Source: Frankiales bacterium (GTDB lineage Bacteria; Actinomycetota; Actinomycetes; Mycobacteriales; SCTD01). Taken from it: 30,888 nt of DNA. Position numbers and translations under genes: made by a program. Below are positions 1 to 29,748 of this stretch, piece after piece. Position 1 is the first letter of the stretch, and each line of letters opens with the position of its first letter. Where the stretch lies: NCBI GenBank assembly GCA_043747515.1, contig JAYTOZ010000358.1:1-30888 (forward strand), read 5' to 3'. The notes beneath the pieces were generated by a model, which saw only the letters and a program-made list of their open reading frames with translations, was not told the DNA's origin and made no database searches.

Positions 1-398
1 CGCAGCTGTCCGCCGACCAGCAGGAGCAGCAGGCCGGTCGCTGCGACGGCCACCCAGGCGAGCGCCCCACGGCGACGGCAGCCGATGTCCGCGGGAGCCG
101 CAGGAGCGAGGGGGACGGCGGCACTGCGTAGCGCCCACGCGCCGACGAACACGACCTCGAGGACGACGAATGCGTATTCCTCGACTGGGATCGAGCCGAT
201 CCGGCCGATGACCTGGGCGGGGTCGTAGGACCAGACCCCGGTACGGACGAGGTGGTCGTCCCACGGAGTGGTCCAGAGCAGCGCCAGTGTCGACAGAGCC
301 GCTCCAGGGGCGACGAGCACCCGCCGCCCGGGCACACCGCGCAGGAGCAGGGCCGCCGGAAGGGCGACGGCCAGAAGGTCGAACAGCGCGTAGTTCAC
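1..398 (-). CDS. crtY: Lycopene cyclase domain-containing membrane protein (CrtYcd/CarR-type), 3' end outside window
   Basis: Not in the ORF track; translated by hand from GTG at 398 (GGAG 5 nt upstream): MNYALFDLLAV...LLWTTPWDDHLVRTGVWSYDPAQVIGRIGSIPVEEYAFVVL. TTPWD..GVW.Y..G.IP.EEY.F is the membrane lycopene cyclase signature. Co-oriented with the rhodopsin. Confidence 0.85.
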   Translation of the reverse strand, partial: MNYALFDLLAVALPAALLLRGVPGRRVLVAPGAALSTLALLWTTPWDDHLVRTGVWSYDPAQVIGRIGSIPVEEYAFVVLEVVFVGAWALRSAAVPLAPAAPADIGCRRRGALAWVAVAATGLLLLLVGGQL

Positions 399-425
399 GG
401 GTGCTCCCAGCCTGCGCGGGTGGTG

Positions 426-464
426 CCGGTCGGGGGCGGCGCGGGTGCAGCCACCCCCGACCGG
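426..464. terminator. GC-rich hairpin between rhodopsin and lycopene cyclase genes
   Basis: CCGGTCGGGGG (426-436) and CCCCCGACCGG (454-464) form a perfect 11-bp inverted repeat, extended by GGC/GCC. No U-tract. Confidence 0.55.
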
Positions 465-495
465 AGCGTCGTACCGGGCGGGTCTTTTTGGGGGG

Positions 496-1338
496 TTAGG
501 CCCGCACGCTGGAGCGGTCGGCGACCAGATCGCCCATCTCGTGGTCCTCGTCGAAGCTCGGGTCGTCGGCCTCGCTCTTGAACCGGGCGATCTTGAAGAT
601 GACCAGGCCGAACGCCGCCTTGGCGAGGATGTCAGCGATCGAGTAGCCGGCCTGCCGGGCCACAAAGCCACCGGCACCACTGAACCCGAAGACCGGGAAC
701 AGGTAGGCGATCGGGTAGACGCCCCAGAGACCCACCAGCATGATCCGCAGCTTGCTGACGGTGCCCCGGACCTCGAGCGGCTGGCGGTCGAGCGACTTGC
801 TCAGCTCGACGAACAACACGTAGAGCAGGTAGATGAACGGGATCGTCGACAGCGTGCCCCACAGCAGCCGGGTGCCGGTGTCGCTCGAGACCTCACCGGG
901 GTAGCCGAGCGCGATCATCAGGCCGGAGGCGATGACGAGCTTGGTGAGCAGTGGCTTGGCGACAGCGCGGGCCAGCGCCAACACGGCGATTGTCTCAACG
1001 AGCAGCAGCGGGACGGTGAGGAACCAGTCGACGTATCGGTAAGCCTCGTTGAACTCGATGTTGGTGAGCTTGAACGGCCCGGATCCACCCTGGGCGGTGG
1101 TCTTGTAGGACTCCTTGAAGTTCTGGAAGATCCGGATGTAGTGGTAGGTGGCGATGAAGCACACCATTGCGCTGACCACCAACGCGTTGCGGTAACGGGC
1201 AACGACCCGTCGTTGCGACAAGACCAGGAACAGCCCGGTGAACGCCAGACTGGCGATGGCGAGCGAGAACAGGTTGTAGACGGCATTGAACTGCCCAGAA
1301 CTGAGCTCTGGGACCTTGACGGATGCAGCGAGCAACAC
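496..1338 (-). CDS. Microbial rhodopsin, xanthorhodopsin/actinorhodopsin-like outward proton pump (DTE motif)
   Basis: 280 aa, 7 hydrophobic segments. Helix C RYVDWFLTVPLLLVE (D-T-E), helix B YHY His, helix G DILAK Schiff-base Lys, LGYPGE and LWGTLSTIPF as in xanthorhodopsin. GAGGAG 6 nt before GTG 1338. Confidence 0.97.
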   Translation of the reverse strand: MLLAASVKVPELSSGQFNAVYNLFSLAIASLAFTGLFLVLSQRRVVARYRNALVVSAMVCFIATYHYIRIFQNFKESYKTTAQGGSGPFKLTNIEFNEAYRYVDWFLTVPLLLVETIAVLALARAVAKPLLTKLVIASGLMIALGYPGEVSSDTGTRLLWGTLSTIPFIYLLYVLFVELSKSLDRQPLEVRGTVSKLRIMLVGLWGVYPIAYLFPVFGFSGAGGFVARQAGYSIADILAKAAFGLVIFKIARFKSEADDPSFDEDHEMGDLVADRSSVRA

Positions 1339-1499
1339 GTCTTGCTCCTCACGGTTGCGCCGGCGAAGTGCCGGCTCGTCGGCTGGTCGGCGGGTGCCGG
1401 CGAGGGGCGTCGGTCCCGGTCCCGGGGCGGTGTGGCCGCGGTGCGTGTCCGTGGTCTCCGTCGGGGCACGGTGATCTTCACGGGCCCGGCGACGTTGCG

Positions 1500-1526
1500 C
1501 AACCCGAACATCTCATGGCGCGTTCT
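1500..1526 (-). promoter_or_regulatory. Putative ECF-sigma-type promoter for the rhodopsin-crtY transcript
   Basis: Minus strand AGAAC (1526-1522)-N18-GTTG (1503-1500), one mismatch from GGAAC-N18-GTT. The -10 part overlaps the palindrome GTTGCGCAAC (1494-1503). Confidence 0.3.
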
Positions 1527-1550
1527 GTGACTGGCTGCGATCCTGTGGCT

Positions 1551-2522
1551 ATGGTCCGACCGGCCCGCGCCCTGCGAGATCACGACCCGACGAGGTTGCT
1601 GACGCCGTCCTGGAGCCCGGTTCCGGCAGCCCTTCACACGACGCGAAGCTCGGTCGGCCTGGTCGCCGTCGCCGCCACCGTCGGGGCCCTCGCACCCGCT
1701 GCCGCCGCCGATGCCGGACCGGCGCTGCTGGTCGTCGCCGGCCTGCTCGGCTTGCCGCACGGGGCGGTCGACCACCTCGCCCTCGGCTGGGTCCGTGGCC
1801 GGACCGGCCCGGCCCGGCCCGGCGTCCTGCTCGCCTATGCCGCCGCAGCGGTTGCGGCAGCGGTGGCCGCCCTCGCCGCCCCGATGCCAGCCCTGCTGCT
1901 GCTCCTGACGCTGTCGGTGGCACATTTCGCCGAGGGCGAGGCCGCGTTCGACCGGTTGCGGGGAGGAGCCGGGCTCGTCCTGCCGGCAACCGCGCTCGGC
2001 ACAGCGGTGGTTGCGCTGCCGCTCGTGCTCCGGCCGGCCGCTGCCCGCCCATTGCTGATCGCGTTGGACCCGGCCCTGCCGGCGGTGCTGGCCGGCGCGC
2101 GGCTGGTGCTGATCGTCGGGACGGCGCTGCTTGTCGTGGTCGGCCTGCTGGTGGCAATGCGCGCTGGTCAGCGGATGGTCGCGACGGAGCTGGCGGTCGT
2201 CGCGCTGGCTGCCGCGCTCGGCCCGCCGCTGGTTGTCTTCGCCGTCTGGTTCGCCGGCTGGCACGCCCCGCGGCACCTGGTCCGGTTGGCTGCCCTCGAA
2301 CCGTCCGGCGACGGACGTGAGCGGGTGCGCCGGCTGGCTCGCGGCGCTGCCGTCCCGACCGCGTTCGCGGCCAGCGGCCTGGCCGGGCTCGCGCTCGTGC
2401 TCGGCGGCCTCCCGGGAGCGGTGCTGATCGTGCTGCTCGCGCTCACTGTGCCGCACACCGCGGTGGTGGCGCGGCTCGACCGGTTGGCCGCCACCGCGAC
2501 AGTCGACCGGTCAGCCGCGTAG
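1551..2522 (+). CDS. blh: Brp/Blh family beta-carotene 15,15'-dioxygenase
   Basis: Four His motifs GLPHGAVDH, SVAHF, GWHAPRH and LTVPH in a multi-TM protein, divergent from the rhodopsin. ATG 1551 chosen because TG-c-GATCCT lies 6 nt upstream (leaderless type); ATG 1515 is an alternative. Confidence 0.9.
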   Translation: MVRPARALRDHDPTRLLTPSWSPVPAALHTTRSSVGLVAVAATVGALAPAAAADAGPALLVVAGLLGLPHGAVDHLALGWVRGRTGPARPGVLLAYAAAAVAAAVAALAAPMPALLLLLTLSVAHFAEGEAAFDRLRGGAGLVLPATALGTAVVALPLVLRPAAARPLLIALDPALPAVLAGARLVLIVGTALLVVVGLLVAMRAGQRMVATELAVVALAAALGPPLVVFAVWFAGWHAPRHLVRLAALEPSGDGRERVRRLARGAAVPTAFAASGLAGLALVLGGLPGAVLIVLLALTVPHTAVVARLDRLAATATVDRSAA

Positions 2523-4211
2523 CCCCAGCTGGTCGTCGCGCCACTCCGTCGCCGCGTCGCCGGTCCGGGCCAACTCGTGCTCGCGCTCGCGCAGGTCGAC
2601 CCGGCGGATCTTGCCGCTGACGGTCTTGGGGAGCTCGGCCACGAACTCGAGCCGGCGCACCCGCAGGTAGGGCGCGAGGCGCTCGCGGGCGTGCTGCAGG
2701 ATCGCGCGAGCGGTCTGCTCGGTCGGCTCCCAGCCGGCGGCCAGGGTGACGTAGGCCTTGGGGACGGCCAGCCGCAGCGGATCCGGCGCCGGGACGACCG
2801 CTGCCTCGGTGACGGCCCGATGCTCGATCAGCACGCTCTCGAGCTCGAACGGCGAAACCTTGTAGTCGCTGGCCTTGAACACGTCGTCGGTGCGACCGAT
2901 GTAGGTGATGCTCCCGTCCGCGGCTCGCTGCGCGATGTCGCCCGTGTGGTAGCGGCCACCGGCCATCGCCTCCGCCGCGAGCTCGAGATCACCCTGGTAG
3001 CCCGTCATCAACGCCAGCGGCTGGCTGGACAGGTCGAGACACAACTCGCCTTCGTCGGCGAGCTGGTCGGTGAGCGGGTCGACGAGCACCACCGGGATGC
3101 CCGGCAGTGGCCGGCCCATCGCACCCGGCCGCACCGGCTGCCCCGGGGTGTTGCCGACCTGGGCGGTCGTCTCGGTCTGGCCGAACCCGTCGCGAACGGT
3201 CAGCCCCCAATGCCGCTGCACGTGGGTGATCACCTCGGCGTTGAGGGGTTCGCCGGCCGCGAGCAGCTCCCGCAGGGCACCCGGCCCGCCGGACAGGTCT
3301 GCCTGGATGAGCATCCGCCACACCGTCGGCGGCGCGCAGAACGTCGTCACCGAGGCCGCCCGGAGCTGGGCCAGCAGGGTCGCGGCCTCAAACCGGGCGT
3401 AGTTCGCGACGAAGACGGTCGCCTGGGCCAGGAACGGCGCGAAGAAGCAGGACCAGGCGTGCTTGGCCCAGCCGGGCGAGGCGATCGTGAGGTGCACATC
3501 GCCCGGCTGCAACCCGATCCAGTACATCGTCGACAGGTGCCCGACCGGATAGCTGACCTGGGTGTGCTCGACCAGCTTCGGCCGCGAGGTCGTGCCCGAG
3601 GTGAAGTACAACAGCACCGGGTCGCCCGGATCGGTCACCGCCTCGAAGGTCCTCGGCTGCCTCACGGCGTACGCCGATCGGTAGTCGAGCCAGCCGGGTG
3701 GGGTCCCGTCGACGCAGATCCTCGACAGCGATGGCAGCTGGTCGAACTTGGCGGCATCGTCGGCCGTCGCGACGACGTGCTGCACATCGGCCCGGGCCAC
3801 CCGGTCGGCCAGGTCGGCGGCGCCGAGCGCCGTCGTCGTGGGGAGCACGATCGCGCCGAGCTTCATCACCGCCAGCATCGACTCCCACAGCTCGACCCGG
3901 TTGCCGAGCATCAGCATGACGCGGTCGCCCCGGCCGACCCCCTGCTCGGCCAGCCAGGTCGCGACCTGGTCGGAGCGCCGGACCAGGTCGTCGTAGGTGA
4001 GGCGCTGCTCGCTGCCGTCCGGTTCGACGATCCACAGCGCGACGGTGTGGGAGCCGCGGCCGATCGCGTCGAACCAATCGGTGGCCCAACAGAACGGGCC
4101 CTTGAGCTGCGGCCAGGCGAAGGTGGCGACCGCCTGGTCGTAGTCGTCCCGGGTCGCCAGCAGGTGGTCGCGCGCGGCCCGCAGCGCGATGGTGTTGGCC
4201 GTGTCGGTCAT
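2511..4211 (-). CDS. AMP-binding acyl-CoA synthetase (short/medium-chain acid-CoA ligase family)
   Basis: YFTSGTTSRPK, AAGEPLN, GFGQTET, YHTGD, GRTDDVFK and PKTVSGKIRR motifs. Start ATG 4211 with CAGGAT 6 nt upstream. Confidence 0.92.
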   Translation of the reverse strand: MTDTANTIALRAARDHLLATRDDYDQAVATFAWPQLKGPFCWATDWFDAIGRGSHTVALWIVEPDGSEQRLTYDDLVRRSDQVATWLAEQGVGRGDRVMLMLGNRVELWESMLAVMKLGAIVLPTTTALGAADLADRVARADVQHVVATADDAAKFDQLPSLSRICVDGTPPGWLDYRSAYAVRQPRTFEAVTDPGDPVLLYFTSGTTSRPKLVEHTQVSYPVGHLSTMYWIGLQPGDVHLTIASPGWAKHAWSCFFAPFLAQATVFVANYARFEAATLLAQLRAASVTTFCAPPTVWRMLIQADLSGGPGALRELLAAGEPLNAEVITHVQRHWGLTVRDGFGQTETTAQVGNTPGQPVRPGAMGRPLPGIPVVLVDPLTDQLADEGELCLDLSSQPLALMTGYQGDLELAAEAMAGGRYHTGDIAQRAADGSITYIGRTDDVFKASDYKVSPFELESVLIEHRAVTEAAVVPAPDPLRLAVPKAYVTLAAGWEPTEQTARAILQHARERLAPYLRVRRLEFVAELPKTVSGKIRRVDLREREHELARTGDAATEWRDDQLGLRG

Positions 4212-4233
4212 GCCCGCATCCTGCCCGACCCGG

Positions 4234-5400
4234 CTAGCGGTCCAGGGGCAGGCCGACGTAGTTCTCGGCAAGGCTGGTGGCAGCGGCCGTGGAGCTCGCG
4301 ACAGCGCGCAGCTGGGCGAGCTGCAGCTGTCGGTCGAAGTCGTCACCGCCGAAGGTGTGCAACATCGAGGTCATCCACCAGGAGAAGTGCGTCGTGCGCC
4401 AGACCCGGCGCAGCGCCCGTTCCCCGTAACTGTCGAGCAGGTCCGGATCGCGGGCACCGAACCAGGCGGTCAGCGCGTCCGCGAGCAGCGCCACGTCGGC
4501 GACCGCGAGGTTGAGGCCCTTGGCGCCGGTCGGCGGGACGATGTGCGCGGCGTCGCCGGCCAGGAACAACCGGCCGTGCCGCATTGGGGTGCTGACGAAA
4601 CTGCGCATCGGCGTGATCGCCTTGTCGATGACCTCGCCGGTGTCCAGCGACCAGCCGTCGAGCGCGAGGCGAGTCTGCAGCTCGGCCCAGATCCGGTCGT
4701 CGGACCAGTCCTCGACGCGTTCGCCAGGGTCGACCTGGAGGTAGAGACGGCTGATCTCAGGCGACCGCATGCTGTGCATCGCGAAGCCGTGGGGATGCCA
4801 GGCGTAGATCAGCTCGTCGGTCGACGGAGCCACCCTGGCCAGGATCCCCAGCCAGGCCAGGGGGTACTCGCGCTCCCAGGTCGTCGCCCCCGGTACAGCG
4901 AGCCGGCTGATCCCGTGGAATCCGTCGGCACCGACGACGACGTCGCAGTCCAATCGGTGGAGCTGACCGTCGGCGGTGCTGAACGTCACGGCCGGGTGGT
5001 CGGAGTCGACATCGTGGACGGCCGTGCCGGAGACCTCGAAGTGCAGCGGCAGACCCGCTGCCACGCGCGCGGCGATGAGGTCCTTGACCACCTCGGTCTG
5101 GCCGTAGACCCAGACCGAGCGGCCGGTCAACGCCTGGAAGTCGATCCGGTGCCGCTCGCCCGGCCACTGCAGGAAGATCCCGTCGTGCTGCAGCCCCTCG
5201 CGCTGGAGCCGGCCGCCGACGCCGGCCTCGACGAGCAGGTCGACGGTGCCCTGCTCGAGCACCCCGGCCCGGATCCGCGCCTCGACGTAGTCGCGGGAGC
5301 GTCGCTCGATGACGACGCAGTCGATGCCTGCCCGGGCGAGCAGCTGCGACAACAGCAGACCGGCGGGGCCCGCGCCGATGATGGCGACCTGGGTACGCAT
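4234..5400 (-). CDS. pobA: 4-hydroxybenzoate 3-monooxygenase
   Basis: MRTQVAIIGAGPAG, RIRAGVLEQG, VYGQTEV, DGFHG, RSPEISRLYLQ and GDAAHIVPPTGAKGLNLA. Adjacent to pca genes. Confidence 0.95.
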   Translation of the reverse strand: MRTQVAIIGAGPAGLLLSQLLARAGIDCVVIERRSRDYVEARIRAGVLEQGTVDLLVEAGVGGRLQREGLQHDGIFLQWPGERHRIDFQALTGRSVWVYGQTEVVKDLIAARVAAGLPLHFEVSGTAVHDVDSDHPAVTFSTADGQLHRLDCDVVVGADGFHGISRLAVPGATTWEREYPLAWLGILARVAPSTDELIYAWHPHGFAMHSMRSPEISRLYLQVDPGERVEDWSDDRIWAELQTRLALDGWSLDTGEVIDKAITPMRSFVSTPMRHGRLFLAGDAAHIVPPTGAKGLNLAVADVALLADALTAWFGARDPDLLDSYGERALRRVWRTTHFSWWMTSMLHTFGGDDFDRQLQLAQLRAVASSTAAATSLAENYVGLPLDR

Positions 5401-5489
5401 GGCGCAGAGCCTGACGGCAAGGGCTGCGCGGGCCAAGCCGGGGGATGACACGCTGCGCACAAACCGCGCGGCGACGAAAGGAGCGCATC

Positions 5490-6203
5490 GTGGCAGCGCC
5501 GAGGCATTGGGGCTACGAACGGCCGCCCGACGGGGTCAACCCCCCGCTGCTGGCACCGGCGTACGCCGCCACGATTGCGCGCGCGCCCTCCCGGACGTTG
5601 GTCCTGCTCCCGCACCGCCTCGGGGAGCTGACCGGGCCGGTCTTCGGCCCAGAGCGGGTGCTCCCCGGTGACGCCGACCTCACCACGTGTGGAGCCACCG
5701 AGGCGATCGGCCAGCGGATCATTGTGACGGGGCGGGTACTCGACAGCGACGGCCGGGCGGTGCCGCACACCCTGATCGAGCTCTGGCAGGCCAACGCCGC
5801 CGGGCGCTACGCCCACCCACTCGACAGCTGGCCCGCGCCGCTCGACCCTGGCTTCACCGGCGCCGGCCGGACTGTGACCGACACTGAGGGCCGCTACCGC
5901 TTCACCACGATCAAGCCTGGCGCCTACCCATGGCGGAACCATGACAACGCCTGGCGGCCGGCGCATCTGCACTTCTCGCTGTTCGGCGTCGCCTTCGCCC
6001 AGCGGCTGGTCACCCAGATGTATTTTCCCGACGACCCGCTGTTCGGCCAGGACCCGATCTACGGCGCGGTGCCCGAGGCGTCCCGGCATCGGCTCGTCAG
6101 CCGCTTCAGCCTGGCGCAGACCCGCCCGGACTGGGCCCTCGCCTTCGAGTTCGACATCGTGCTGCGGGGGCGCGACGCCACACCCTTCGAGGAGCCCCGA
6201 TGA
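5490..6203 (+). CDS. pcaH: Protocatechuate 3,4-dioxygenase beta subunit
   Basis: ELWQANAAGRY, TIKPGAYPW and WRPAHLHFS carry the Tyr/Tyr/His/His iron ligands; LVTQMYFP. AAGGAG before GTG 5490. Confidence 0.95.
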   Translation: MAAPRHWGYERPPDGVNPPLLAPAYAATIARAPSRTLVLLPHRLGELTGPVFGPERVLPGDADLTTCGATEAIGQRIIVTGRVLDSDGRAVPHTLIELWQANAAGRYAHPLDSWPAPLDPGFTGAGRTVTDTEGRYRFTTIKPGAYPWRNHDNAWRPAHLHFSLFGVAFAQRLVTQMYFPDDPLFGQDPIYGAVPEASRHRLVSRFSLAQTRPDWALAFEFDIVLRGRDATPFEEPR

Positions 6204-6742
6204 GCCGGTTGGGTCTCACCCCCTCGCAGACCGTCGGCCCCTACCTCTCGCTCGCCCTGCGTCGGCCGGACGGCCAGTACGTCGTACCGGCGGGAACGCC
6301 TGGTGCGTGCTGGATCCGGGGACGCGTGCTCGACGGCCGAGGTGAGGTCGTCACCGACGCACTGGTCGAGACCTGGCAGGCCGACGTCGACGGGATCTAC
6401 TGCCATCCACGCGACGAGCGGTACGCCGGGGCACCGGTCACCCCCGGCTTCCGGGGCTTCGGGCGCTCCGAGACGGTCGCGGGCGGCTGGGCGATCCACA
6501 CCGTGCGGCCGGGGTGGGCCGACGGTGCCCCGCACCTGGCCGTGTCGGTCTTCGCCCGTGGCCTGCTCGACCGACTGGTCACCCGGATCTACCTGCCGGA
6601 CCAGGACAACAGCCAGGATCCGGTGTTGGCCGGGCTCGACCCGGCGCGGGCCGCCACCCTGGTCGCGGCCCCCGCCGAGGACGGCTACCACCTCGACATC
6701 ACACTGCAGGGTGAGCATGAGACCGTCTTCTTCGCTGTCTGA
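6200..6742 (+). CDS. pcaG: Protocatechuate 3,4-dioxygenase alpha subunit
   Basis: TPSQTVGPY, ETWQAD, VSVFARGLL, TRIY and LQGEHETVFF. ATGA overlap with pcaH. Confidence 0.95.
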   Translation: MSRLGLTPSQTVGPYLSLALRRPDGQYVVPAGTPGACWIRGRVLDGRGEVVTDALVETWQADVDGIYCHPRDERYAGAPVTPGFRGFGRSETVAGGWAIHTVRPGWADGAPHLAVSVFARGLLDRLVTRIYLPDQDNSQDPVLAGLDPARAATLVAAPAEDGYHLDITLQGEHETVFFAV

Positions 6743-8069
6743 CGGCCTGTTCGACGGGGTCCTCGGCCGCGGTGGAGCCGCCGAGCAGGTCCGTGACGGG
6801 GCCTGGTTGCGGGCGCTGCTGGACGTCGAGGCGGCCCTCGCGATGGCCTGCGTCGCAGCCGGTCTGGTCCCCCCGGCGGCAGCCGCCGCGATCTTCGCCG
6901 CCTGCCGGGACATCGGCGCGTACGACCTCGGGACGCTCGGCCGGCAAGCAGCCGCGGAGGGCAATCCGGTGGTGCCCCTGGTGCGGGCCATCGAGACCCT
7001 CGCCGGGCCGGACGCCGCACCCTTCGTGCATGTCGGCGCGACGAGCCAGGACGTTCTCGACAGCGCCATGCTGCTCGTGGCCCGACGGTCACTGACGCAC
7101 GTGCTCACCGACCTGCGGGCCGCGGCCGGGGCCGCCGCCGGGCTCGCCGCCGCGCACCGGGACACCGCCATGGTGGGCCGGACCCTGCTGCAGCAGGCCC
7201 TGCCGACGACCTTCGGGCTCAAGGCGGCCGGCTGGGCGCTGGCGCTGGACCACGCCGCGGCGCAACTCGACCGGGTCGACGCAGCGTTGCCGGTGCAGCT
7301 CGGCGGCGCGGTCGGCACCCTCGCGGTCTACGGGGAGAGCGCGACGGTCGTGCTCACCGAGCTGGCGCGGGCGCTGGGGCTGCGGGTGCCGGTGCTGCCC
7401 TGGCACACTGCCCGCGGACCGGTCGCCGACCTGGCGGGCGCACTCGGCGCGGCCTGCGGGGCGGTCGGGAAGGTCGGGCTCGACGTCTGCCTGCTGGCCC
7501 AGAACGAGGTCGGCGAGGTGCGCGAAGCGGTGGCGGGCCGGGGCGGCTCGTCGGCGCTGCCGCACAAGCGCAACCCCGTCGCGGCCGTCGCCGCCCGGGC
7601 CGCGGCGTTGCGCGCTCCAGGCCTGGTCGCGACGCTGCTCACTGCCATGGCGCAGGAGCATGAGCGCGCGGCGGGTGCCTGGCACGCCGAGTGGGAGACC
7701 CTCGGTGAGCTGCTCCGCGCCACCGGCAGCGCCGCGGCCTGGCTGCACGACTGCCTGGAGTCCCTCGAGGTGGACTCCGGGCGGATGGCGCACAATCTTG
7801 GCGTGGCAGGCAATGAGCTGGTCACCGAGGCGGTGGCGGTGGCGCTCGCCCCGAGGCTCGGCCGCACCGCCGCACACGAGCTGGTCGCGGCGGCGATGGC
7901 CCGGACCCGCGACCACGCCAGCACCCTGTGGGCGGAGCTCGCTGCCGACCCCGGCTGTCCGCTCGACGATGCGCAACTCAGCCGTCTCACCACCCCGTCG
8001 ACCGGTCAGGCCGGCCAGCTGGTCGATCGTGCCCTGGCCAGTCGCACCGCCGACAAGGAGCAGCCGTGA
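6717..8069 (+). CDS. pcaB: 3-carboxy-cis,cis-muconate cycloisomerase
   Basis: Fumarase/aspartase-superfamily signature GGSSALPHKRNPV, plus HVGATSQD, GRTLLQQA and HERAAGAWHAEW. Start uncertain (ATG 6717 or CTG 6735). Confidence 0.9.
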   Translation: MRPSSSLSDGLFDGVLGRGGAAEQVRDGAWLRALLDVEAALAMACVAAGLVPPAAAAAIFAACRDIGAYDLGTLGRQAAAEGNPVVPLVRAIETLAGPDAAPFVHVGATSQDVLDSAMLLVARRSLTHVLTDLRAAAGAAAGLAAAHRDTAMVGRTLLQQALPTTFGLKAAGWALALDHAAAQLDRVDAALPVQLGGAVGTLAVYGESATVVLTELARALGLRVPVLPWHTARGPVADLAGALGAACGAVGKVGLDVCLLAQNEVGEVREAVAGRGGSSALPHKRNPVAAVAARAAALRAPGLVATLLTAMAQEHERAAGAWHAEWETLGELLRATGSAAAWLHDCLESLEVDSGRMAHNLGVAGNELVTEAVAVALAPRLGRTAAHELVAAAMARTRDHASTLWAELAADPGCPLDDAQLSRLTTPSTGQAGQLVDRALASRTADKEQP

Positions 8070-9295
8070 CCGCCGTCGAGGTCCAGCACGTCGAAGCCGG
8101 TCCGTCGGACGCGCCTGTCGTCGTGCTCATCGGCTCGCTCGGCTCGACCCATGCGATGTGGGACCCGCAGGTGCCGGTGCTGAGCCAGCGCTTCCGGGTC
8201 GTCCGCTACGACGCCCGCGGGCACGGCAGATCACCGGTGCCGCCGGGCCCCTACGCACTGGACGACCTGGTCGACGACGTGGTGGCGCTGCTCGACCGGC
8301 TCGGGGTCGCGCGGGCCCACGTCGTGGGGCTCTCGCTCGGCGGCATGACCGCGATGCGGCTCGCGGTCCGCGAGCCGGCTCGGGTGGACCGGCTGGCCCT
8401 GCTGTGCACCTCGGCGCTGCTCGGGCCGCCGAGCGGCTGGACCGAGCGCGCCGCGGCCGTCCGCGCGGGCGGCAGCGGCGCGGTCGCCGACGCCGTCGTC
8501 GAGCGCTGGCTCACCCCGGCGGGCCGGCTCCCGGACCGGGTGGCCTGGCTGCGAGCCATGATCGCCGCGACACCGGCCGAGGGCTATGCCGCCTGCTGCG
8601 AGGCGATCGGGGCGATGGACCTGCGGGCCGACCTGGTGGACATCGCTGCACCGACCCTGGTCATCGCCGGCGCGGACGACCCGTCGACGCCGCCCGAGCA
8701 CCTCGAAGCCATCGTCGCGGCGATCCCCGGCGCGCGGCTGCAGGTCCTCGCCGGGGCCGCCCACCTGGCCAACATCGAGCAGGCAGCCGCTGTCAATGCC
8801 GCCCTGCTGGCCCATCTCGACCCGGCGGGGCGCTCCTCCCACAACACCGGGATGGCGGTGCGCCGGGCCGTGCTGGGCGACGAGCACGTCGACCGCGCCG
8901 TCGCAGCCACGACCGCCCTCACCGAGCCCTTCCAGGACCTCCTCACCCGCTACGCCTGGGGCGACGTCTGGGCCAGGCCGGGACTGTCCCGGCGTACGCG
9001 CAGCCTGGTGACGCTGGCGGTGCTCACCGCCCTCGGCCATGAGCACGAGCTCGCACTGCACGTGCGGGCGGCTGTCACCAACGGCCTGACCGACGAGGAG
9101 ATCTCCGAGGTGCTGCTGCACACCGCCGTCTATGCCGGCGTGCCGGCCGCGAACCGGGCCTTCGCCGTCGCCCAACAGACCCTCGCCGAGCTGCAGCCCC
9201 GACCCGGATCGAGCAAGCGCCACGCAGCTGGTGCTCGTGCTGGATCCGACCGCGACCCGCCCGCGTTTCCAGGGCCCGATCCAGCACGGCAATGA
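8066..9295 (+). CDS. pcaL: Fused 3-oxoadipate enol-lactonase / 4-carboxymuconolactone decarboxylase (PcaD-PcaC)
   Basis: Alpha/beta hydrolase (YDARGHG, GLSLGG, AAHLAN) followed by a CMD domain (YAWGDVW, ELALHVRAA, YAGVPAAN). AAGGAG RBS and GTGA overlap with pcaB. Confidence 0.93.
   Translation: MTAVEVQHVEAGPSDAPVVVLIGSLGSTHAMWDPQVPVLSQRFRVVRYDARGHGRSPVPPGPYALDDLVDDVVALLDRLGVARAHVVGLSLGGMTAMRLAVREPARVDRLALLCTSALLGPPSGWTERAAAVRAGGSGAVADAVVERWLTPAGRLPDRVAWLRAMIAATPAEGYAACCEAIGAMDLRADLVDIAAPTLVIAGADDPSTPPEHLEAIVAAIPGARLQVLAGAAHLANIEQAAAVNAALLAHLDPAGRSSHNTGMAVRRAVLGDEHVDRAVAATTALTEPFQDLLTRYAWGDVWARPGLSRRTRSLVTLAVLTALGHEHELALHVRAAVTNGLTDEEISEVLLHTAVYAGVPAANRAFAVAQQTLAELQPRPGSSKRHAAGARAGSDRDPPAFPGPDPARQ
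9233..9292. repeat. Palindromic dispersed repeat, copy 1 (REP/MITE-like)
   Basis: GCTCGTGCTGGATC-N31-GATCCAGCACG-GCAA; 11-bp perfect inverted arms (9236-9246 and 9278-9288). Homologous to 13554-13614. Confidence 0.75.

Positions 9296-15619: not shown

Positions 15620-15623
<4 letters not shown>
14841..15623 (-). CDS. hisN: Histidinol-phosphatase (inositol monophosphatase family)
   Basis: KPDLTPVSDAD, ILGEE, WVLDPIDGTKNFVRGVPVWATLIAL, TRAFGDFW and WDLAAL. ATGA overlap with fabF. Confidence 0.92.
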
Positions 15624-17802
<2,179 letters not shown>

Positions 17803-18082: not shown

Positions 18083-19516
18083 GTGCAGCAGTTGACCGGT
18101 CTGGACGCGGCCTTCCTGGCGCTGGAGACCCCCGGGGTCTACGGCCACGTCGGGAGCGTCTGCATCCTCGATGCCGCCAACGCGCCGGCACCGGTGACGC
18201 TGGAGTCGCTGACCCGGCTGCTCGAGTCGCGTCTGCACCTGGTGCCGGTCTTCCGCCGCCGGCTGGCCGAGGTGCCGTTCGGGTTCGATCAGCCCTACTG
18301 GATCGAAGACCCCGATTTTGACATCGAGTTCCATGTCCGCGAGATCGCGCTGCCCGCGCCGGGGGACGACAAGCAGCTCGCCGAGCAGGCCGCCCGGTTG
18401 CATGCCCGACCGCTCGACCGCAGCCGCCCGCTCTGGGAGCTCTACCTGATCTCTGGGCTGTCCGGCGGCCGGGTCGCGGTGTACAGCAAGGTGCACCACG
18501 CCGCGATCGACGGGGTCGGCGGCAACGACGTGCTGGCCGCCCTGCTCGATCTGACGCCTCAGGGCCGCGACCTCGAGCCCGCGCCGCCATGGTCGGGTGA
18601 CCATGTGCCGGGCCCGGTCGAGTTGCTGACCCGCAGTGCGGTCTCGATGTGGGGCCACCCGGCGCGAGCGGTGCGCCTGTCGACCCAGCTCGCCGCGTCG
18701 CTGCCCGGCATCATGCGCAACACCGCGATGCCGCGCCTACCGGTGGTCGACCGGCTGTGGCGGCGCAGTCAGAGCGCCGTGCTCAACCAGAGCAGCTTGC
18801 GCGCCCCGGCCACGCCGTTCAACAAGCGCATCTCGCCGCACCGCCGCTGGGCCTTCTGCACCGTCTCGCTCAGCGACGTCAAGAAGGTCAAGAACGCGCA
18901 GGGCTGCACCGTCAACGACGTCGTGATGGCGCTGTGCGCCGGTGCGCTGCGTCGCTGGCTGCTCGACCACGACGCGCTGCCGGACTCGCCGCTGATCGCG
19001 GCCGTCCCGGTCTCGATTCGCAGCGACGCACAGCAGGGCGCCGGGGGCAACCGGGTCTCGTCGATGATCGCGCCGATCCCGACCGACATCGCCGACCCGG
19101 GTGAGCGGCTCGCGCTGGTCCATGAGGCGATGCGGGCTGCCAAGGAGCAGCACGGCGCGTTGCCCGCGGACCTGCTCGCCGACGCGGCGCAGTTCGCGAT
19201 GCCGGCGCTGGCCGGCCAGGCAGCCCGGCTCAACGCCCGGTTGCGCCTGCTGGAGTGGCTCAGCCCGTTCAACCTGTTCATCTCCAACGTCCCGGGGCCC
19301 AACATCGCGCTTTACTATGCTGGTGCGAGATTGCTTGCCTACTACCCATTGTCGGCTATCGCTCATGGTCAGGGACTCAACATGACCGTGATGAGTTACG
19401 AGGACGGCCTGCACTTCGGGCTGCTGTCCTGCCGCGAGCTGGTGCCCGATCTTGACACGCTGGCCCACTACCTTGTCGACTCACTCGATGAGTTGCTCGC
19501 CCTCATCCCCGCCTGA
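18083..19516 (+). CDS. Wax ester synthase / diacylglycerol acyltransferase (WS/DGAT)
   Basis: LTGLDAAFL, PLDRSRPLWELY, HHAAIDG catalytic motif, TVNDVV, GNRVS and ISNVPGP. Confidence 0.95.
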   Translation: MQQLTGLDAAFLALETPGVYGHVGSVCILDAANAPAPVTLESLTRLLESRLHLVPVFRRRLAEVPFGFDQPYWIEDPDFDIEFHVREIALPAPGDDKQLAEQAARLHARPLDRSRPLWELYLISGLSGGRVAVYSKVHHAAIDGVGGNDVLAALLDLTPQGRDLEPAPPWSGDHVPGPVELLTRSAVSMWGHPARAVRLSTQLAASLPGIMRNTAMPRLPVVDRLWRRSQSAVLNQSSLRAPATPFNKRISPHRRWAFCTVSLSDVKKVKNAQGCTVNDVVMALCAGALRRWLLDHDALPDSPLIAAVPVSIRSDAQQGAGGNRVSSMIAPIPTDIADPGERLALVHEAMRAAKEQHGALPADLLADAAQFAMPALAGQAARLNARLRLLEWLSPFNLFISNVPGPNIALYYAGARLLAYYPLSAIAHGQGLNMTVMSYEDGLHFGLLSCRELVPDLDTLAHYLVDSLDELLALIPA

Positions 19517-23373: not shown

Positions 23374-24776
23374 GCCTGGTGGCCGGGCTCGACCTGGGGG
23401 GCTCGTCGGTCAAGGCCTGGGTCTGCGACGCCTCGGCGCCGCAGCAGGCCCTCGCTTCGCTCACTGTGCCGGCGCCGGTGTTGCGGCCGGCTCCGCACCG
23501 GGTGGAGTTCGTCCCCGGCGAGTGGGAGGCCGTCTGCCGCACCGCCCTGGCCGACGTCGTACGCCGTACCGGCCGGCCCGGCGCCGACTACGTCGGGGTC
23601 ACCGTCGGTTCGCTCCGGCAGGGCTTCGTGCTGTTGGACGGCGCCGGCGAACCGCTGGGCACCGGGGTGCTCAACAGCGACCGCCGGGGAGCCCCCTACG
23701 CCGGGGTGCTTGACGGCCAGCACCGGCTCACCGGGCACTGGCCGGCGCCGGAGCTGACCCTGCCCAAGCTGCTCGCGGTGCAGCACGACGAGCCGGCGCG
23801 GTGGGCGGCGACGGCGCGGGTGCTGTTCGTGCACGACTGGGTGCTGTGGCGGATGACCGGGGTGCAGGTCACCGAGTTGTCCTACGCCTGCGCGGGCGCG
23901 ATGGCCGACGTGGCCGGTCGGCGGTGGGCCACCGACCTGCTGGAGCAGTGCGGTGTCGGCGTCGGGCGACTCGCGCCGCTGGTCGAGGCCGGCAGCCGGG
24001 TCGCTGCGCTGGGCGAGGGCTGGGGCCTGCCGGTCTCGCTGCCCGTGGTCAGCGGGTGCGGCGACACCCAGCTCGCTGCGATGGGCGTCGGGGGCCTGGC
24101 CGACGGGGTCCTGACGGTCGTGGCCGGGTCGAGCACGCCGGTCCAGGTGGCCACCTCGGCGATGGTCGACGACCCGCTCGGCCGCCCGTGGGTGTCGACC
24201 CACGCAGCACAGGATCGCTGGGCAGCGGAGGGCAATGCCGGCTACCCCGGGACGGCACAGGGCTGGTGGGCCGGCCTCGTCCCGCGCGGTCAGGATGAGC
24301 CGGCGACCGGGCCGAGCCACGTCACGGCGGTCACGGCCGCGCCGTACTGGTCGCAGCAGACCTGGGAGCGCAAGCCACCGACGTCACTGCTGGGGCTGCG
24401 GCCCGAGACGACCGCCCGCGACGTGGCCGACGCCTTCGAACAGGCGCACGCCTACGCGGTGCGCGGCAACATCGAGGACCTCGAACGGGCCTTGCGCCGA
24501 GCCGCCTCAGCCGTCGTGGTCACCGGCGGGGCGGCTGCCGACGGCCGGCTGCCGGCCCTGCTCGCCGGGGTGCTCGGCCGAGACGTGCACTGGGCCAGAA
24601 GCGGCGGTGCGGCGCAGGCCGGCACGGTGCTGGTCGCGCGGGCGCTCGGGGCGCAACTGGACATTCCAGCCCTGCCGACGACGGTGTTGCCCGCCGGCGA
24701 CCCGGCGCCCTGGCAGGAGGGTTACGAGCGTTGGACGACGACGACCGAGGCGTTGCGCTCGGCTTTGGCCGGCTGA
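23370..24776 (+). CDS. FGGY-family carbohydrate kinase (LsrK/xylulokinase-like)
   Basis: GLDLGGSSVK, SLRQG, NSDRRG, HDWV, SGCGDTQLA and VTGGAA. Confidence 0.9.
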   Translation: MSLVAGLDLGGSSVKAWVCDASAPQQALASLTVPAPVLRPAPHRVEFVPGEWEAVCRTALADVVRRTGRPGADYVGVTVGSLRQGFVLLDGAGEPLGTGVLNSDRRGAPYAGVLDGQHRLTGHWPAPELTLPKLLAVQHDEPARWAATARVLFVHDWVLWRMTGVQVTELSYACAGAMADVAGRRWATDLLEQCGVGVGRLAPLVEAGSRVAALGEGWGLPVSLPVVSGCGDTQLAAMGVGGLADGVLTVVAGSSTPVQVATSAMVDDPLGRPWVSTHAAQDRWAAEGNAGYPGTAQGWWAGLVPRGQDEPATGPSHVTAVTAAPYWSQQTWERKPPTSLLGLRPETTARDVADAFEQAHAYAVRGNIEDLERALRRAASAVVVTGGAAADGRLPALLAGVLGRDVHWARSGGAAQAGTVLVARALGAQLDIPALPTTVLPAGDPAPWQEGYERWTTTTEALRSALAG

Positions 24777-25702
24777 GCCTTCCTGCCACGCTTGTCGAGG
24801 TACATCCGCCGGTCGGCCAGGCCCCAGGCGGTCTCGACGGCCTGGGACGGGTCCCACCAGGCCGCCCCGACCGACACCTGCAGCTGCTCGTCCCGCAGGG
24901 CCGCCTGCAGGCGGGCTGCGAGCTGTTCGGCGTCCCCGAAGCCGGCTGCCGGGCTGAGCACCCCGAACTCATCGCCGCCGAGGCGGGCCAGCACATCGGT
25001 GCGCCGGACCGCGCCCTGCAACGCGGTCGCCACCTTGGTGAGCAGCAGATCGCCGCTCGCGTGGCCGAGCCGGTCGTTCAAGGCCTTCAGCCCGTCGCAG
25101 TCGAGGCTGGCGAAGGCCAGCCCGCCGCCGTCGCGCTGGCAGCGCTCACGTTCCCGGTCCAGGGCGGTGATCCAGCCGAACCGACTGAGCACGCCGGTGA
25201 GCGGGTCGCGCATCGCCGCCGCTTCGGCCTCGTCGGCGCGCGCCGCCTCGATCCGACTGGCGGTGCTCGCCTCGTGGACGTGGGCCAGCAGGTCGGCGAG
25301 CATCTGGACCAGCGGCAGCACCTCCGCGAGGGACGGCGGCATCGGCTCCGGGTCGAACCCGCAGACGGTCCCGAGCAGCCGGCCGTCGACGGTGATCGGC
25401 GCCCCGACGTACGCCGAGATGGGCAGCTCGGTGCGCAGGGGTGCGGCGCCGAGCCGGGAGTCGTCGTCGAGGTTGGCCACCACCTGCGCGCCGGTGCCGC
25501 GCACCATCCGCCAGCACACGGTGTCGGTCCAGCGCAGCCGGGTGCCGGGTGGCACGCCGTAGCCGCGGTCGGCGACGGCGACGGGGATCCAGTCACCCGC
25601 CTGTTCGTCGATGTCGGCGACCACCCAGGCGTGCATCGGGGACTGGGTCTGCAAGAAGTCGACGACACGCTGGGCCGCGACGAGATAGCCGTCGTGCTGC
25701 AC
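24722..25702 (-). CDS. GAF-domain diguanylate cyclase
   Basis: N-terminal GAF (AYVGAPI..GTVCGFD), DPLTG, DCDGLKALNDRLGHASGD and RLGGDEF, with an RxxD I-site (RRTD). GGAGG before GTG. Confidence 0.92.
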   Translation of the reverse strand: MQHDGYLVAAQRVVDFLQTQSPMHAWVVADIDEQAGDWIPVAVADRGYGVPPGTRLRWTDTVCWRMVRGTGAQVVANLDDDSRLGAAPLRTELPISAYVGAPITVDGRLLGTVCGFDPEPMPPSLAEVLPLVQMLADLLAHVHEASTASRIEAARADEAEAAAMRDPLTGVLSRFGWITALDRERERCQRDGGGLAFASLDCDGLKALNDRLGHASGDLLLTKVATALQGAVRRTDVLARLGGDEFGVLSPAAGFGDAEQLAARLQAALRDEQLQVSVGAAWWDPSQAVETAWGLADRRMYLDKRGRKAQPAKAERNASVVVVQRS

Positions 25703-28218: not shown

Positions 28219-28578
28219 TCAACCGCCGTGCGTATCAATCTCCGCAGATGTGCGGCAGCACGTGTCGTTACCGCCGGGCCGGGCCGAGGCAGGCAGATCC
28301 GCCTCGTCGAGGACGGCATCCAGGGCCGCCCGGGCCGCGGCGAGGCCGGCTGGATCCAGGGCGTAGTGCGTGAAACCGTCCGCGTGCCGCCGGGTGACCA
28401 GGCCGCAGGCGGCGAGCTTGGCCAGGTGGTGGCTGACCAGCGGCTGGGCGAGCCCGGACTGCTCGACCAGCTCGCGCACGCACTGCTCGCTGCGACGCAG
28501 GGCGCGCACGAGCTCGAGCCGGTGCGGCTCGGACAGCGCTCGCAGCACCTCCTGAACGTCCAGGGTGGCAGCGGCCAT
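28219..28578 (-). CDS. arsR: ArsR/SmtB family transcriptional regulator with C-terminal Cys-Cys
   Basis: 119 aa: [32 protein letters not shown] and DTCCRT. TGATG overlap with the methyltransferase; C-terminal part of track ORF 28219..29655. Confidence 0.9.
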
Positions 28579-29738
28579 CAGCAGCAGGGCGCGTCGGTGG
28601 CGCTGGACAGCCCGCGCAGGTCCCGCTGCAGTGGCGCAGCCGGACCCGCTGCCGTCAAGGCCGCCGGCGGCGCGCAGGCGAACATCGGCGCGGTTTCCGG
28701 GTCGACCGGCTCGGCCGGTGACAGCAGCTCGAAGGCCCCGGCGTACGGCGCCTTGGCCAGGATGTCGAAGGTCTTGGCACAGACCGCGGTCGCGACACCG
28801 CGCTCGTAGACGTGGTCGTCGTCGTCGAGCACGGCCTTGAACGGGCCCCGCAGCACGACCGCCTGGCCGTGGTCCATGCACGGGCCGTGTTTGCCCTTGT
28901 AGGCCACGACCGTGACGGAGCGGAACTCGATGCCCTCGACGACCTGCCACGGGGCGCTGTCGCGCTTGTCCAGGGTGACGCCGTAGAAACCAGCTTCCTC
29001 GAAGGCGCGCAGGAAGGCCTCCTGTTCGTACGCGCCGGAGATGCAGCCGCTCCACAGGTCGGCGTCGGCGCGCAGATGGTCGGGCACCTCGACGTCGCTG
29101 ACGATGTCGGAGATGACCGCCCGGCCACCGCGGCGCAGCACCCGGAAGATCTCGCCGAACAGCGCCGGCTTCTGCTCGTGCGCCACCAGGTTGAGCACGC
29201 AGTTGGACACGACCGCGTCGACCGAGTCGTCGGCGACCAGCGGCACCTGGAGCTTCTGCTGCTGTACGAAGGCGTCGTACGCCGTGATGCCGGCGAAGTC
29301 GGTCACCGGGTTGGCCTGGAGCCAGGCCTCGCTGGCCGCGACGTCGAGCCGCATGTCCTGGATCTTGCCCTTGCGGAACTCCACATTGTCGTAGCCGACT
29401 GCAGCAGCGACCTGCGGAGCGGCGCCGCGGGCGAGATCGAGCATCTCGTCGGTCATGTCGATCCCGATCACCCGACCGGTGGCGCCGACGACCTGCGAGG
29501 CGATGAAACAGATCTTGCCGCCGCCGCTGCCGAGGTCGAGGACCGTCTCGCCCTCGAGCAGGTGGGTGCTCGGGTCGCCGCAGCCGTAGTCGCGGTCGAG
29601 CACCTCCTGCGGGATGACGGTGAGCAAGCGCGGGTCGTAGTCGACCGGACAGCACAGCGCCGCCTCGACGGCCTGCGCGCCGGCGCCGTAGCGGTCCACG
29701 ACGGACTGTTCGACGGCAGCGTCGGTGGTCAGGGTCAT
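28578..29738 (-). CDS. arsM: Arsenite methyltransferase (ArsM/AS3MT)-like SAM-dependent methyltransferase with C-terminal extension
   Basis: SAM motifs LDLGSGGG and GIDMTDEML. All four ArsM-type Cys motifs are present (ALCCP, YGCGDP, SNCVLNL, SGCISGA). Extra C-terminal domain and terminal PCC. AGGAG before ATG 29738. Confidence 0.8.
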
Positions 29739-29748
29739 GTCGGGTCTC

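Follow-up and report, generated by a model that had tools for sequence, protein, structure and literature searches.

Three genes at one end of the window very probably form a module for retinal phototrophy, in which blh runs divergently from an opsin gene and the opsin is followed by a fused lycopene beta-cyclase; the pump that it encodes is, as judged by sequence, antenna-competent. The window is the whole stretch of DNA that was analyzed, 30,888 nucleotides in length, and its host appears to be an uncultured actinobacterium of glacier, ice, or sediment. The opsin is unexceptional within its family of light-driven proton pumps, which has been studied extensively, and the locus mainly confirms a known picture: across the Actinomycetota, pumps of the xanthorhodopsin (XR) family that have the fenestration Gly and come with retinal genes of their own occur widely but unevenly.

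The opsin and its relatives

The rhodopsin gene occupies positions 496..1338 on the minus strand. Its product, 280 residues long, matches PF01036 (E 4e-37) and is of the type that includes xanthorhodopsin, Gloeobacter rhodopsin (GR), and the actinorhodopsins (ActR). The start codon is GTG, and an orthologue with 81% identity (locus L014) begins at the same start, as ATG. A Shine-Dalgarno-like GAGGAG, read from the sequence at 1345..1350 of the minus strand, precedes the GTG across a 6-nt spacer. Helix C reads RYVDWFLTVPLLLVE, which provides D104, T108, L112 (the green-tuning site), and E115. Helix E reads LLWGTLSTIPF, where HMMER alignments to 3ddl and 6nwd set G161 opposite XR G156 and GR G178; the same residue is aligned with G153 of Kin4B8. 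D104, T108, E115, and H66 are aligned with D96, E107, and H62 of XR and with E132 of GR. The Schiff-base Lys, K240, is found in the motif ADILAK and is invariant across 201 relatives, as are H66, D104, T108, L112, and E115. An AlphaFold2 model (pLDDT 92.3) shows seven long helices. The sequence-only reading had listed a DTE proton-pump motif, a Leu at the green-type tuning position, and a Gly at the XR Gly156 position, and all three are where it placed them. The protein is a DTE rhodopsin of the XR family and of outward-pump type, and light-driven outward transport of protons is predicted for it.

Sequence matches to the opsin in PDB include 6nwd (GR, E 3e-82), 9wfa (psXR, E 4e-81), and 3ddl (XR, E 4e-65). 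Bit scores against it are 203-279 for GR, psXR, RlActR, XR, Kin4B8, and TR, at most 105 for the next group (ESR), 80 for PR, and 68 for BR, and the order of these relatives by Foldseek agrees with their order by bit score. Of the solved structures, psXR and GR are nearest to the opsin: in the Foldseek search with its model, psXR has TM 0.97 and GR TM 0.95, each at 56% identity with rmsd of 1.2-1.6 A. The nearest kin of the opsin are members of the XR family, not PR, BR, or NQ pumps. Its best matches among genomes are MAGs of Frankiales and Mycobacteriales (74-82%), followed by Geodermatophilus, Humibacillus, Planktophila, and Clavibacter; identity to the opsins of Planktophila, Clavibacter, and Microbacterium is 55-62%.

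A Pro in the middle of helix D has been proposed as a marker by which ActR can be told apart from xantho-opsins (Dwulit-Smith et al. 2018, 10.1101/367102). Of the ActR characters given in that study, the opsin has the actinobacterial host and the nearest kin but not the Pro: its position 136 is Ile, within KLVIAS, where ActRs read LVPA(S/A). All relatives below 70% identity carry the Pro; from 70% upward the residue is in most cases I, V, L, or F. GR, XR, and Kin4B8 are absent from the 50%-cluster representatives, and a short-motif BLAST for these named reference rhodopsins returned no exact match. The placement of the opsin relative to the named references is therefore one by bit scores, Foldseek identities, and the helix-D marker.

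The carotenoid site

Gly at XR position 156 opens the carotenoid fenestration. The opsin agrees with GR at this residue and at seven more: the eight residues established by mutagenesis as holding the carotenoid in GR (Chuon et al. 2022, PMC9151804), namely G178, T179, S181, T182, F185, W222, P226, and I227, are identical in the opsin, as G161, T162, S164, T165, F168, W205, P209, and I210. Going by these residues, the carotenoid site is intact. The floor of the fenestration is hydrophobic, as in keto-carotenoid binders; V216/F217 are aligned with M211 of XR and M233/L234 of GR, a place where Kin4B8 has the pair S208/Y209 (10.1101/2022.08.24.505090).

An antenna-type glycine had been put forward in the sequence-only reading as a feature of this pump. 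The residue is present, but it is shared by 200 of 201 relatives. Gly161 is a state of the whole clade and no peculiarity of this opsin; being fixed throughout the actinobacterial clade, it does not single the protein out. The antenna competence of actinorhodopsins, moreover, has already been published (Dwulit-Smith 2018, 10.1101/367102; Chuon 2021, PMC8113403).

The three-gene module

The opsin gene is flanked, as had been claimed, by a crtY-domain gene and a divergent blh. The lycopene cyclase gene lies at 1..398 on the minus strand (TIGR03462, 52.6 bits, cut-off 39.4). Because the window is the whole contig, the gene is cut by the contig end after 132 codons, and what is present is its 5' part, holding the first CrtYc/Yd-type (CarR-type) domain with the catalytic PVEE at residue 71. 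Its start is probably GTG 398, as suggested by the orthologue N-terminus (MDYLLFDLL against VNYALFDLL). Orthologues of the cut gene encode 254-residue fusions of two domains. The fused cyclase of L014 (6320..7084), with 57% identity over the 132 residues, has two CarR-type domains with PVEE at 71 and 204, and family member G009 has two adjacent cyclase domains. With two CrtYc/Yd-like domains, PxEE in each, and linkage to a Blh-family gene and an opsin, these orthologues presumably resemble the haloarchaeal-type fused CrtY with brp/blh. An origin of the window cyclase by recent duplication of the host CrtYc/Yd was considered and rejected, since similarity to the host CrtYc is limited to 48% over 33 residues.

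The blh gene, at about 1551..2522 on the plus strand, encodes a Brp/Blh-family beta-carotene 15,15'-dioxygenase (TIGR03753, 133.5 bits, cut-off 95.25; PF15461, E 4e-31) and is the sole BCD-family gene in the genome. The product combines a profile score above the curated cut-off with the four iron-binding histidines of the family, and cleavage of beta-carotene is predicted. The His residues in LPHGAVDH, VAHFAEGE, and WHAPRH, plus LTVPH, are kept in seven orthologues. The frame is open from 1323, where it overlaps the opsin start, and offers candidate starts at 1515, 1545, 1551, and 1596. Conservation with the orthologues begins near residue 100 of the frame read from 1323, so translation probably starts at ATG 1551 or close to it. 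The region between the two gene starts, 1339..1550 and assigned to neither strand, presumably contains both promoters. A search of this region for a regulatory element identified none, the one candidate being a short, weak, imperfect palindrome at 1364-1381.

Gene order is conserved. The arrangement blh(-)|opsin(+)-cyclase(+) is kept in L014, L019, L021, and L023, and the same order occurs in G009 (C1:304135-306703), whose genome has four cyclase domains where rhodopsin-free members of the family have two. Opsin, blh, and fused cyclase are inherited together as a three-gene module. The sample of the order comprised 121 genomes; 12 of them carry an opsin, and 6 of those 12 also carry a Blh. The sequence-only reading had recommended inspecting the genes to the left of the window for crtB, crtI, and a hydroxylase or ketolase. 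There the contig ends, and past the cyclase the orthologous loci encode a cation-efflux protein, a SIS-domain protein, and a phosphomannomutase, nothing related to carotenoids; since these genes are unrelated, only the rest of the cyclase is expected beyond the contig end.

Carotenoid genes elsewhere in the genome

The genome, which is 82% complete, encodes on other contigs (C numbers) a polyprenyl synthase (CrtE-like, C352:2812-3558), crtB (C321:14073-14843), crtI (split between C352:1-1404 and the end of C321), and CrtYc/Yd (C321:7372-7877) as a second cyclase pair. Together with the module's own cyclase and Blh, these genes make up a predicted route to retinal. The earlier suggestion that the host can make retinal thus holds as far as the genes for the route are concerned, and retinal would be supplied through them. 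The description of the locus as self-contained was an overstatement, because the genes for lycopene synthesis, like the second cyclase pair, sit on other contigs.

A candidate pigment cluster comprises a CrtO-like gene (the end of C446 plus C266), CruF (C266:1164-1898), a GT2 glycosyltransferase, and a CrtD-like gene (the end of C266 plus C352:6655-7881), and the relative L100 has them in the same order, with an intact orthologue of the CrtO-like gene at 5321..6859. A salinixanthin-like pigment is expected to require enzymes of the CrtO, CruF, glycosyltransferase, and CrtD types. The cluster could make such a pigment, with the ketolase putative. CrtO is the best NCBIfam match of the CrtO-like protein, at 134 + 113 bits (about 250) against a curated cut-off of 1000, and a homologue search with the protein returned generic names only. 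No protein of this genome, or of four relatives, reached the cut-off of the CrtO ketolase profile, NF045689; Deinococcus radiodurans, the named control, also falls below it, so the threshold may be strict. Searches of the 82%-complete genome found no match to the CrtZ hydroxylase (PF04116) and no CrtW-sized desaturase, the sole FA_desaturase match being in a frame of 408 residues, too long for CrtW. Across the 121 genomes of the order, the CruF pathway and the opsin showed no tendency to occur together: CruF occurs in 57 of 109 rhodopsin-free genomes and in 7 of 12 rhodopsin-bearing ones. As CruF is equally common without rhodopsin, the pigment pathway is not tied to the opsin.

Occurrence in RNA libraries

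In four metatranscriptomes of glacier ice, which belong to a single study, contigs are found that agree with the opsin ORF without differences. Contig depth cannot rank genes, and contigs in an RNA library may be DNA carry-over; the matches therefore count only as presence in RNA libraries. Depth figures in all four ice metatranscriptomes, subject to that limit, are far higher on opsin contigs than on contigs of blh and the flanking genes. Parts of the stretch are without cover in some RNA runs. To the left, contigs of the RNA runs extend 470-1038 nt past position 1.

Proposed mechanism and alternatives

We propose that CrtE-like, CrtB, and CrtI enzymes, whose genes lie on other contigs, would supply lycopene, that the fused cyclase of the module would turn it into beta-carotene, and that Blh would cleave the beta-carotene to retinal. 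The opsin would bind all-trans retinal at Lys240. Green light of about 540 nm, a color that Leu112 would set, would then drive outward proton pumping, with Asp104 (partner His66) as the proton acceptor and Glu115 as the cytoplasmic donor, as in GR. Because Gly161 is accompanied by every residue of the GR carotenoid-binding motif and by a hydrophobic floor, the opsin may also hold a host keto-carotenoid by its ring; a salinixanthin-like glycoside, if the CrtO-like/CruF/GT2/CrtD-like cluster makes one, is a possible candidate. At its fullest, the proposal is that a glacier or ice actinobacterium runs a native dual-chromophore system, in which a GR-like pump is paired with an antenna of salinixanthin-like keto-carotenoid glycoside, the co-inherited fused cyclase diverts lycopene to beta-carotene and retinal, and the flux toward antenna and toward chromophore is divided over two cyclase systems. 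We advance this fullest form tentatively, and consider it rather doubtful. If the antenna reading is true, light harvesting by keto-carotenoids, so far demonstrated for Salinibacter XR, cyanobacterial GR, and psXR, and in part for ActR-13023, would extend to cryospheric and soil Actinomycetota, and blh, opsin, and fused cyclase would offer a compact cassette for engineering retinal phototrophy.

There is nearly an even chance that the opsin is instead a proton pump with retinal as its only chromophore, the Gly being an inherited trait of the clade and the carotenoids serving photoprotection, not light harvesting, on high-light surfaces of ice or sediment. The Gly is kept in the relatives whatever the gene context, the CruF pathway is unassociated with the opsin across the order, and the 82%-complete genome yielded no ketolase above the curated threshold and no hydroxylase. 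Dwulit-Smith et al. (2018, 10.1101/367102) call the Gly necessary but not sufficient for antenna binding, and photoprotection is their alternative. ActR-13023 can be quoted on both sides, as it bound its native carotenoid in vitro, yet added carotenoid did not significantly raise the total pH change (PMC8113403). Conservation speaks against a pump with retinal only: purifying conservation covers all eight GR carotenoid-contact residues, beyond the Gly, and the wider XR family switches freely at the Gly site (15 G, 10 W, and 5 F among 31 distant representatives), so that retention of Gly in this clade suggests selection.

The floor of the fenestration bears also on which carotenoid an antenna would use. 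Hydroxylated xanthophylls of the zeaxanthin or lutein type, made or scavenged, could serve as they do in Kin4B8, a structural relative (46% identity, TM 0.93); fenestrated freshwater XRs bind 3-hydroxy xanthophylls (10.1101/2022.08.24.505090), and Gly161 is in place. We consider this improbable, since the V216/F217 floor is hydrophobic like those of XR and GR where the Kin4B8 pair is polar, and a search of the 82%-complete genome for a CrtZ-type hydroxylase (PF04116) gave no match. It is more improbable still that the opsin has mainly a light-independent role in the membrane, such as lipid scrambling, and that the module is no energy device. A preprint (PMC12393363) proposes scramblase activity for opsins and notes opsin genomes without blh, and Blh is missing in half of the sampled rhodopsin-bearing genomes of the order. 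Here, however, blh is directly beside the opsin along with a dedicated cyclase, and all pump residues are invariant in the 201 relatives; scrambling and pumping, in any case, are not mutually exclusive roles.

Comparison with known systems

The xanthorhodopsin of Salinibacter ruber (3ddl) has 45% identity and TM 0.93 to the opsin. Its Gly156 is the counterpart of Gly161, and both proteins have a hydrophobic fenestration floor, but XR has a longer F-G loop. Set against the salinixanthin system of Salinibacter ruber, the host here has CrtO-like, CruF, glycosyltransferase, and CrtD-like homologues; the ketolase is putative, and no acyltransferase was identified.

GR (6nwd) and psXR (9wfa), the latter from an Antarctic Pseudanabaenaceae cyanobacterium, share with the opsin the DTE motif, the His partner, the Glu donor, the fenestration Gly, and the whole set of eight GR carotenoid-motif residues. 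Their hosts are cyanobacterial, whereas the opsin here is actinobacterial and lies beside blh and a predicted fused cyclase. The antenna of GR, echinenone or canthaxanthin, is supported by experiment; any antenna here is putative.

The ActR of acI (10.1101/367102), ActR-13023 (PMC8113403), and RlActR (PDB 9hfk, PMC11790970) are actinobacterial, green-absorbing DTE pumps with Gly at XR position 156, a set of traits that the opsin here has or is predicted to have. Actinorhodopsins likewise would draw their retinal from Blh and CrtYc/Yd-type cyclases, and in one acI genome actR, crtYc, crtYd, and blh are contiguous (Dwulit-Smith et al. 2018, 10.1101/367102). The cyclase here, in contrast, is probably one fused gene where theirs is two genes, and the habitat is apparently glacier, ice, or sediment where theirs is lake plankton.

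Gene layout at the left end of the window

The assembly totals 2.6 Mb in 510 contigs (82% complete), and the window is one entire contig of 30,888 bp, with a GC content of 70-76%. Near its left end the opsin gene (496..1338, minus strand) encodes a protein of 280 aa with the Bac_rhodopsin domain (PF01036, E 4e-37). The gene starts with GTG, preceded by GAGGAG at a spacer of 6 nt, and an orthologue at 81% identity begins at the same point with ATG. The next gene downstream, on the same strand and 97 nt away, has a lycopene cyclase domain (TIGR03462, 52.6 bits against a cut-off of 39.4) and runs from about 398 to window position 1, where the contig end cuts it after 132 codons. Upstream and divergent, blh (about 1551..2522, plus strand) encodes a Brp/Blh-family beta-carotene 15,15'-dioxygenase (TIGR03753, 133.5 bits, cut-off 95.25; PF15461, E 4e-31), the sole gene of its kind in the 82% complete genome. 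Its frame is open from 1323, but roughly the first 100 residues show no similarity to orthologues, which makes the ATG at 1551 or a neighbouring codon the probable start. The expected iron-binding histidines (LPHGAVDH, AHFAEGE and WHAPRH) are kept among orthologues. The stop-proximal end of blh overlaps convergently, by 12 nt (2511-2522), with that of an AMP-binding ligase gene on the minus strand.

The opsin and its family

With the GTG codon as residue 1, helix C (RYVDWFLTVPLLLVE) supplies the DTE motif as D104, T108 and E115, and L112 occupies the tuning site equivalent to proteorhodopsin 105. H66 lies within a YHY motif, and the Schiff-base lysine is K240 of the ADILAK stretch. In HMMER alignments to solved structures with positions counted, G161 (LLWGTLSTIPF) aligns with G156 of xanthorhodopsin (XR), G178 of Gloeobacter rhodopsin (GR) and G153 of Kin4B8. 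The sequence-only reading of DTE, a leucine at the tuning site and an antenna-type glycine is thus correct in every detail.

A sequence search of solved structures (E-values) and a Foldseek search with an AlphaFold2 model (identities and TM-scores; pLDDT 92.3 from 45 input sequences) recover the same structures: GR (PDB 6nwd; E 3e-82, 56%, 0.95), psXR (9wfa; 4e-81, 56%, 0.97), Rhodoluna actinorhodopsin RlActR (9hfk; 2e-73, 48%, 0.89), XR (3ddl; 4e-65, 45%, 0.93), Kin4B8 (7ytb; 9e-63, 46%, about 0.93) and thermophilic rhodopsin TR (5azd; 7e-59, 46%, about 0.95). After TR the sequence search drops widely to ESR, NQ pumps, proteorhodopsin and bacteriorhodopsin. The closest relatives in genomes are from Frankiales and Mycobacteriales MAGs (74-82%), followed by Geodermatophilus and Humibacillus (65-68%), Planktophila/acI (57%), and Clavibacter and Microbacterium (55-58%); public data already hold a protein 96% identical. 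This ranking, together with the actinobacterial relatives, places the opsin in the xanthorhodopsin family, among its actinobacterial members.

A proline in helix D has been proposed as a mark of actinorhodopsins (Dwulit-Smith et al., 10.1101/367102). The opsin has Ile136 instead of Pro at this site (window about 931-933). All relatives below 70% identity have Pro, whereas most relatives from 70% upwards carry I, V, L or F, so the subclade looks like an actinorhodopsin lineage that has lost the marker.

The carotenoid site

Found in 200 of 201 close relatives, Gly161 is by alignment no peculiarity of this opsin. Among 31 distant cluster representatives the equivalent position is G in 15, W in 10 and F in 5, in agreement with the roughly 55% Gly published for environmental XRs. 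Mutations that weaken canthaxanthin binding in GR fall at G178, T179, S181, T182 and F185 of helix E and at W222, P226 and I227 of helix F (Chuon et al. 2022, PMC9151804). All eight residues are identical in the opsin (G161, T162, S164, T165, F168, W205, P209 and I210) and are strongly conserved within its clade. The fenestration floor has been suggested to separate hydroxy from keto carotenoids, being polar in Kin4B8 (S208/Y209) and hydrophobic in XR (Chazan et al., 10.1101/2022.08.24.505090). In the opsin this floor, which may discriminate between pigments, is V216/F217, aligned with M211 of XR and M233/L234 of GR. The eight identities and the floor together suggest, at the level of sequence, a site of the GR/XR keto-carotenoid type. 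The glycine is necessary yet insufficient for carotenoid binding (10.1101/367102), and we lean somewhat against actual antenna use by this opsin while regarding it as a real possibility.

Retinal supply and the two cyclase systems

The locus had been described from sequence as a self-contained photosystem. That description does not hold, as other genes of the pathway are on separate contigs: crtB on C321, crtI in two pieces, at the end of C321 and at the start of C352, a polyprenyl synthase gene adjoining crtI, and a CrtYc/CrtYd two-gene cyclase pair after thiE (C321:7372-7877; about 1190-1845 of locus L004). Between crtI and crtB is a polytopic membrane protein of 459 aa with no Pfam match (C321:14924-16303; locus L005 2352-3731, minus strand).

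The order of blh divergent from opsin and cyclase recurs at four loci in relatives (L014, L019, L021 and L023), and is also present in G009, the only other rhodopsin-bearing genome sampled in the family. Orthologous loci encode the opsin-linked cyclase as one 254-aa protein in which two domains, each bearing PVEE, are fused, and the genes beyond it are unrelated; what the window lacks is therefore no more than the cyclase's second half. G009 has four cyclase domains, against two in rhodopsin-free members of the family, which have the CrtYc/CrtYd pair only. The present genome has two lycopene cyclase systems, this pair and the fused cyclase beside the opsin (window 1-398). A recent duplication of the host CrtYc as the origin of the fused cyclase is ruled out, since similarity between them is only remote. 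A division of labour between the two systems, one for pigment and one for retinal, is possible.

Blh, opsin and cyclase would form a compact retinal module, passed on as a unit and drawing its lycopene from the general host pathway. We consider it highly probable that the locus encodes a pump with such a module.

A candidate antenna pigment

The contigs bearing crtI carry pieces of a carotenoid-modification cluster found whole in a relative (locus L100, 5321-10613), in the order CrtO-like flavoenzyme, 147-aa ORF (conserved, no Pfam family), CruF (PF04240), family-2 glycosyltransferase and CrtD-like desaturase. Here the cluster is split across contig ends (C446 10107-11006, the whole of C266, and C352 6655-7881), which implies the contig order C446, C266, C352 (reversed), C321 (reversed). 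A pathway to a monocyclic keto-carotenoid glycoside of the salinixanthin kind would be expected to use CrtO-like, CruF, glycosyltransferase and CrtD-like enzymes. At about 250 bits the CrtO-like protein falls short of the curated cut-off of 1000; its top-scoring curated family is nevertheless CrtO, at about twice the next, and Deinococcus radiodurans, the named control, likewise falls under the cut-off. No CrtZ was found in the 82% complete genome. Among sampled genomes of the order, CruF is present in 57 of the 109 without rhodopsin and in 7 of the 12 with it, marking a general pigment route unlinked to the opsin.

Distribution and habitat

Across 121 sampled genomes of the order, 12 have rhodopsin, 8 have Blh and 6 have both. 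The trait is patchy, with predicted retinal self-sufficiency in only half of its carriers, a pattern also published for Rhodoluna and acI (10.1101/367102). Glacier, ice and sediment metagenomes of seven studies contain near-identical DNA, and two of the runs may be the source of the assembly itself. Four ice metatranscriptome runs of one study (X10, X11, X15 and X16) have contigs within window 1-1470 that match the opsin ORF without a difference. These runs also include contigs that span the opsin stop and the cyclase, reach 470-1038 nt past the left end of the window, and could complete the cyclase gene. The matches show presence in RNA libraries, which does not in itself prove transcription or a single transcript. 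Opsin depth far exceeds that of its neighbours in all four runs, although contig depth is no basis for ranking genes.

The rest of the window

The remaining genes agree with what had been remarked earlier about aromatic degradation and the storage of lipid. The AMP-binding enzyme (2511..4346, minus strand) is of the aryl/acyl-CoA ligase type. The protocatechuate branch is represented by a PobA-like 4-hydroxybenzoate hydroxylase (4234-5460, minus), protocatechuate 3,4-dioxygenase subunits PcaH and PcaG-like (5445-6742, plus), and a fused alpha/beta-hydrolase and carboxymuconolactone decarboxylase (7928-9295, plus). A KAS (15620-16927, minus), a FabG-type reductase (17038-17802, plus) and a WS/DGAT wax-ester/triacylglycerol synthase (18083-19516, plus) form a set consistent with neutral-lipid storage. 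Also encoded are SerA-like and GlcD-like enzymes, MsrA, an MFS transporter, a GAF-GGDEF diguanylate cyclase (24722-25702) and, at the right end, a methyltransferase (28578-29786) adjoining a radical-SAM protein (29749-30855).

Comparison with known systems

No element of the locus is without precedent. Actinobacterial DTE pumps that have Gly at XR position 156 are known (10.1101/367102), a native carotenoid binds the actinorhodopsin ActR-13023 (Chuon et al. 2021, PMC8113403), and the motif basis for carotenoid binding has been described in GR (PMC9151804). Mildly distinctive are the apparent co-inheritance of opsin and fused cyclase, the presence of a further cyclase system in the genome, the apparent loss of the helix-D proline and the apparently cryospheric habitat. 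In one acI genome actR, crtYc, crtYd and blh are contiguous (10.1101/367102); there crtYc and crtYd are separate genes, whereas the orthologues of the opsin-linked cyclase in the window are one fused gene.
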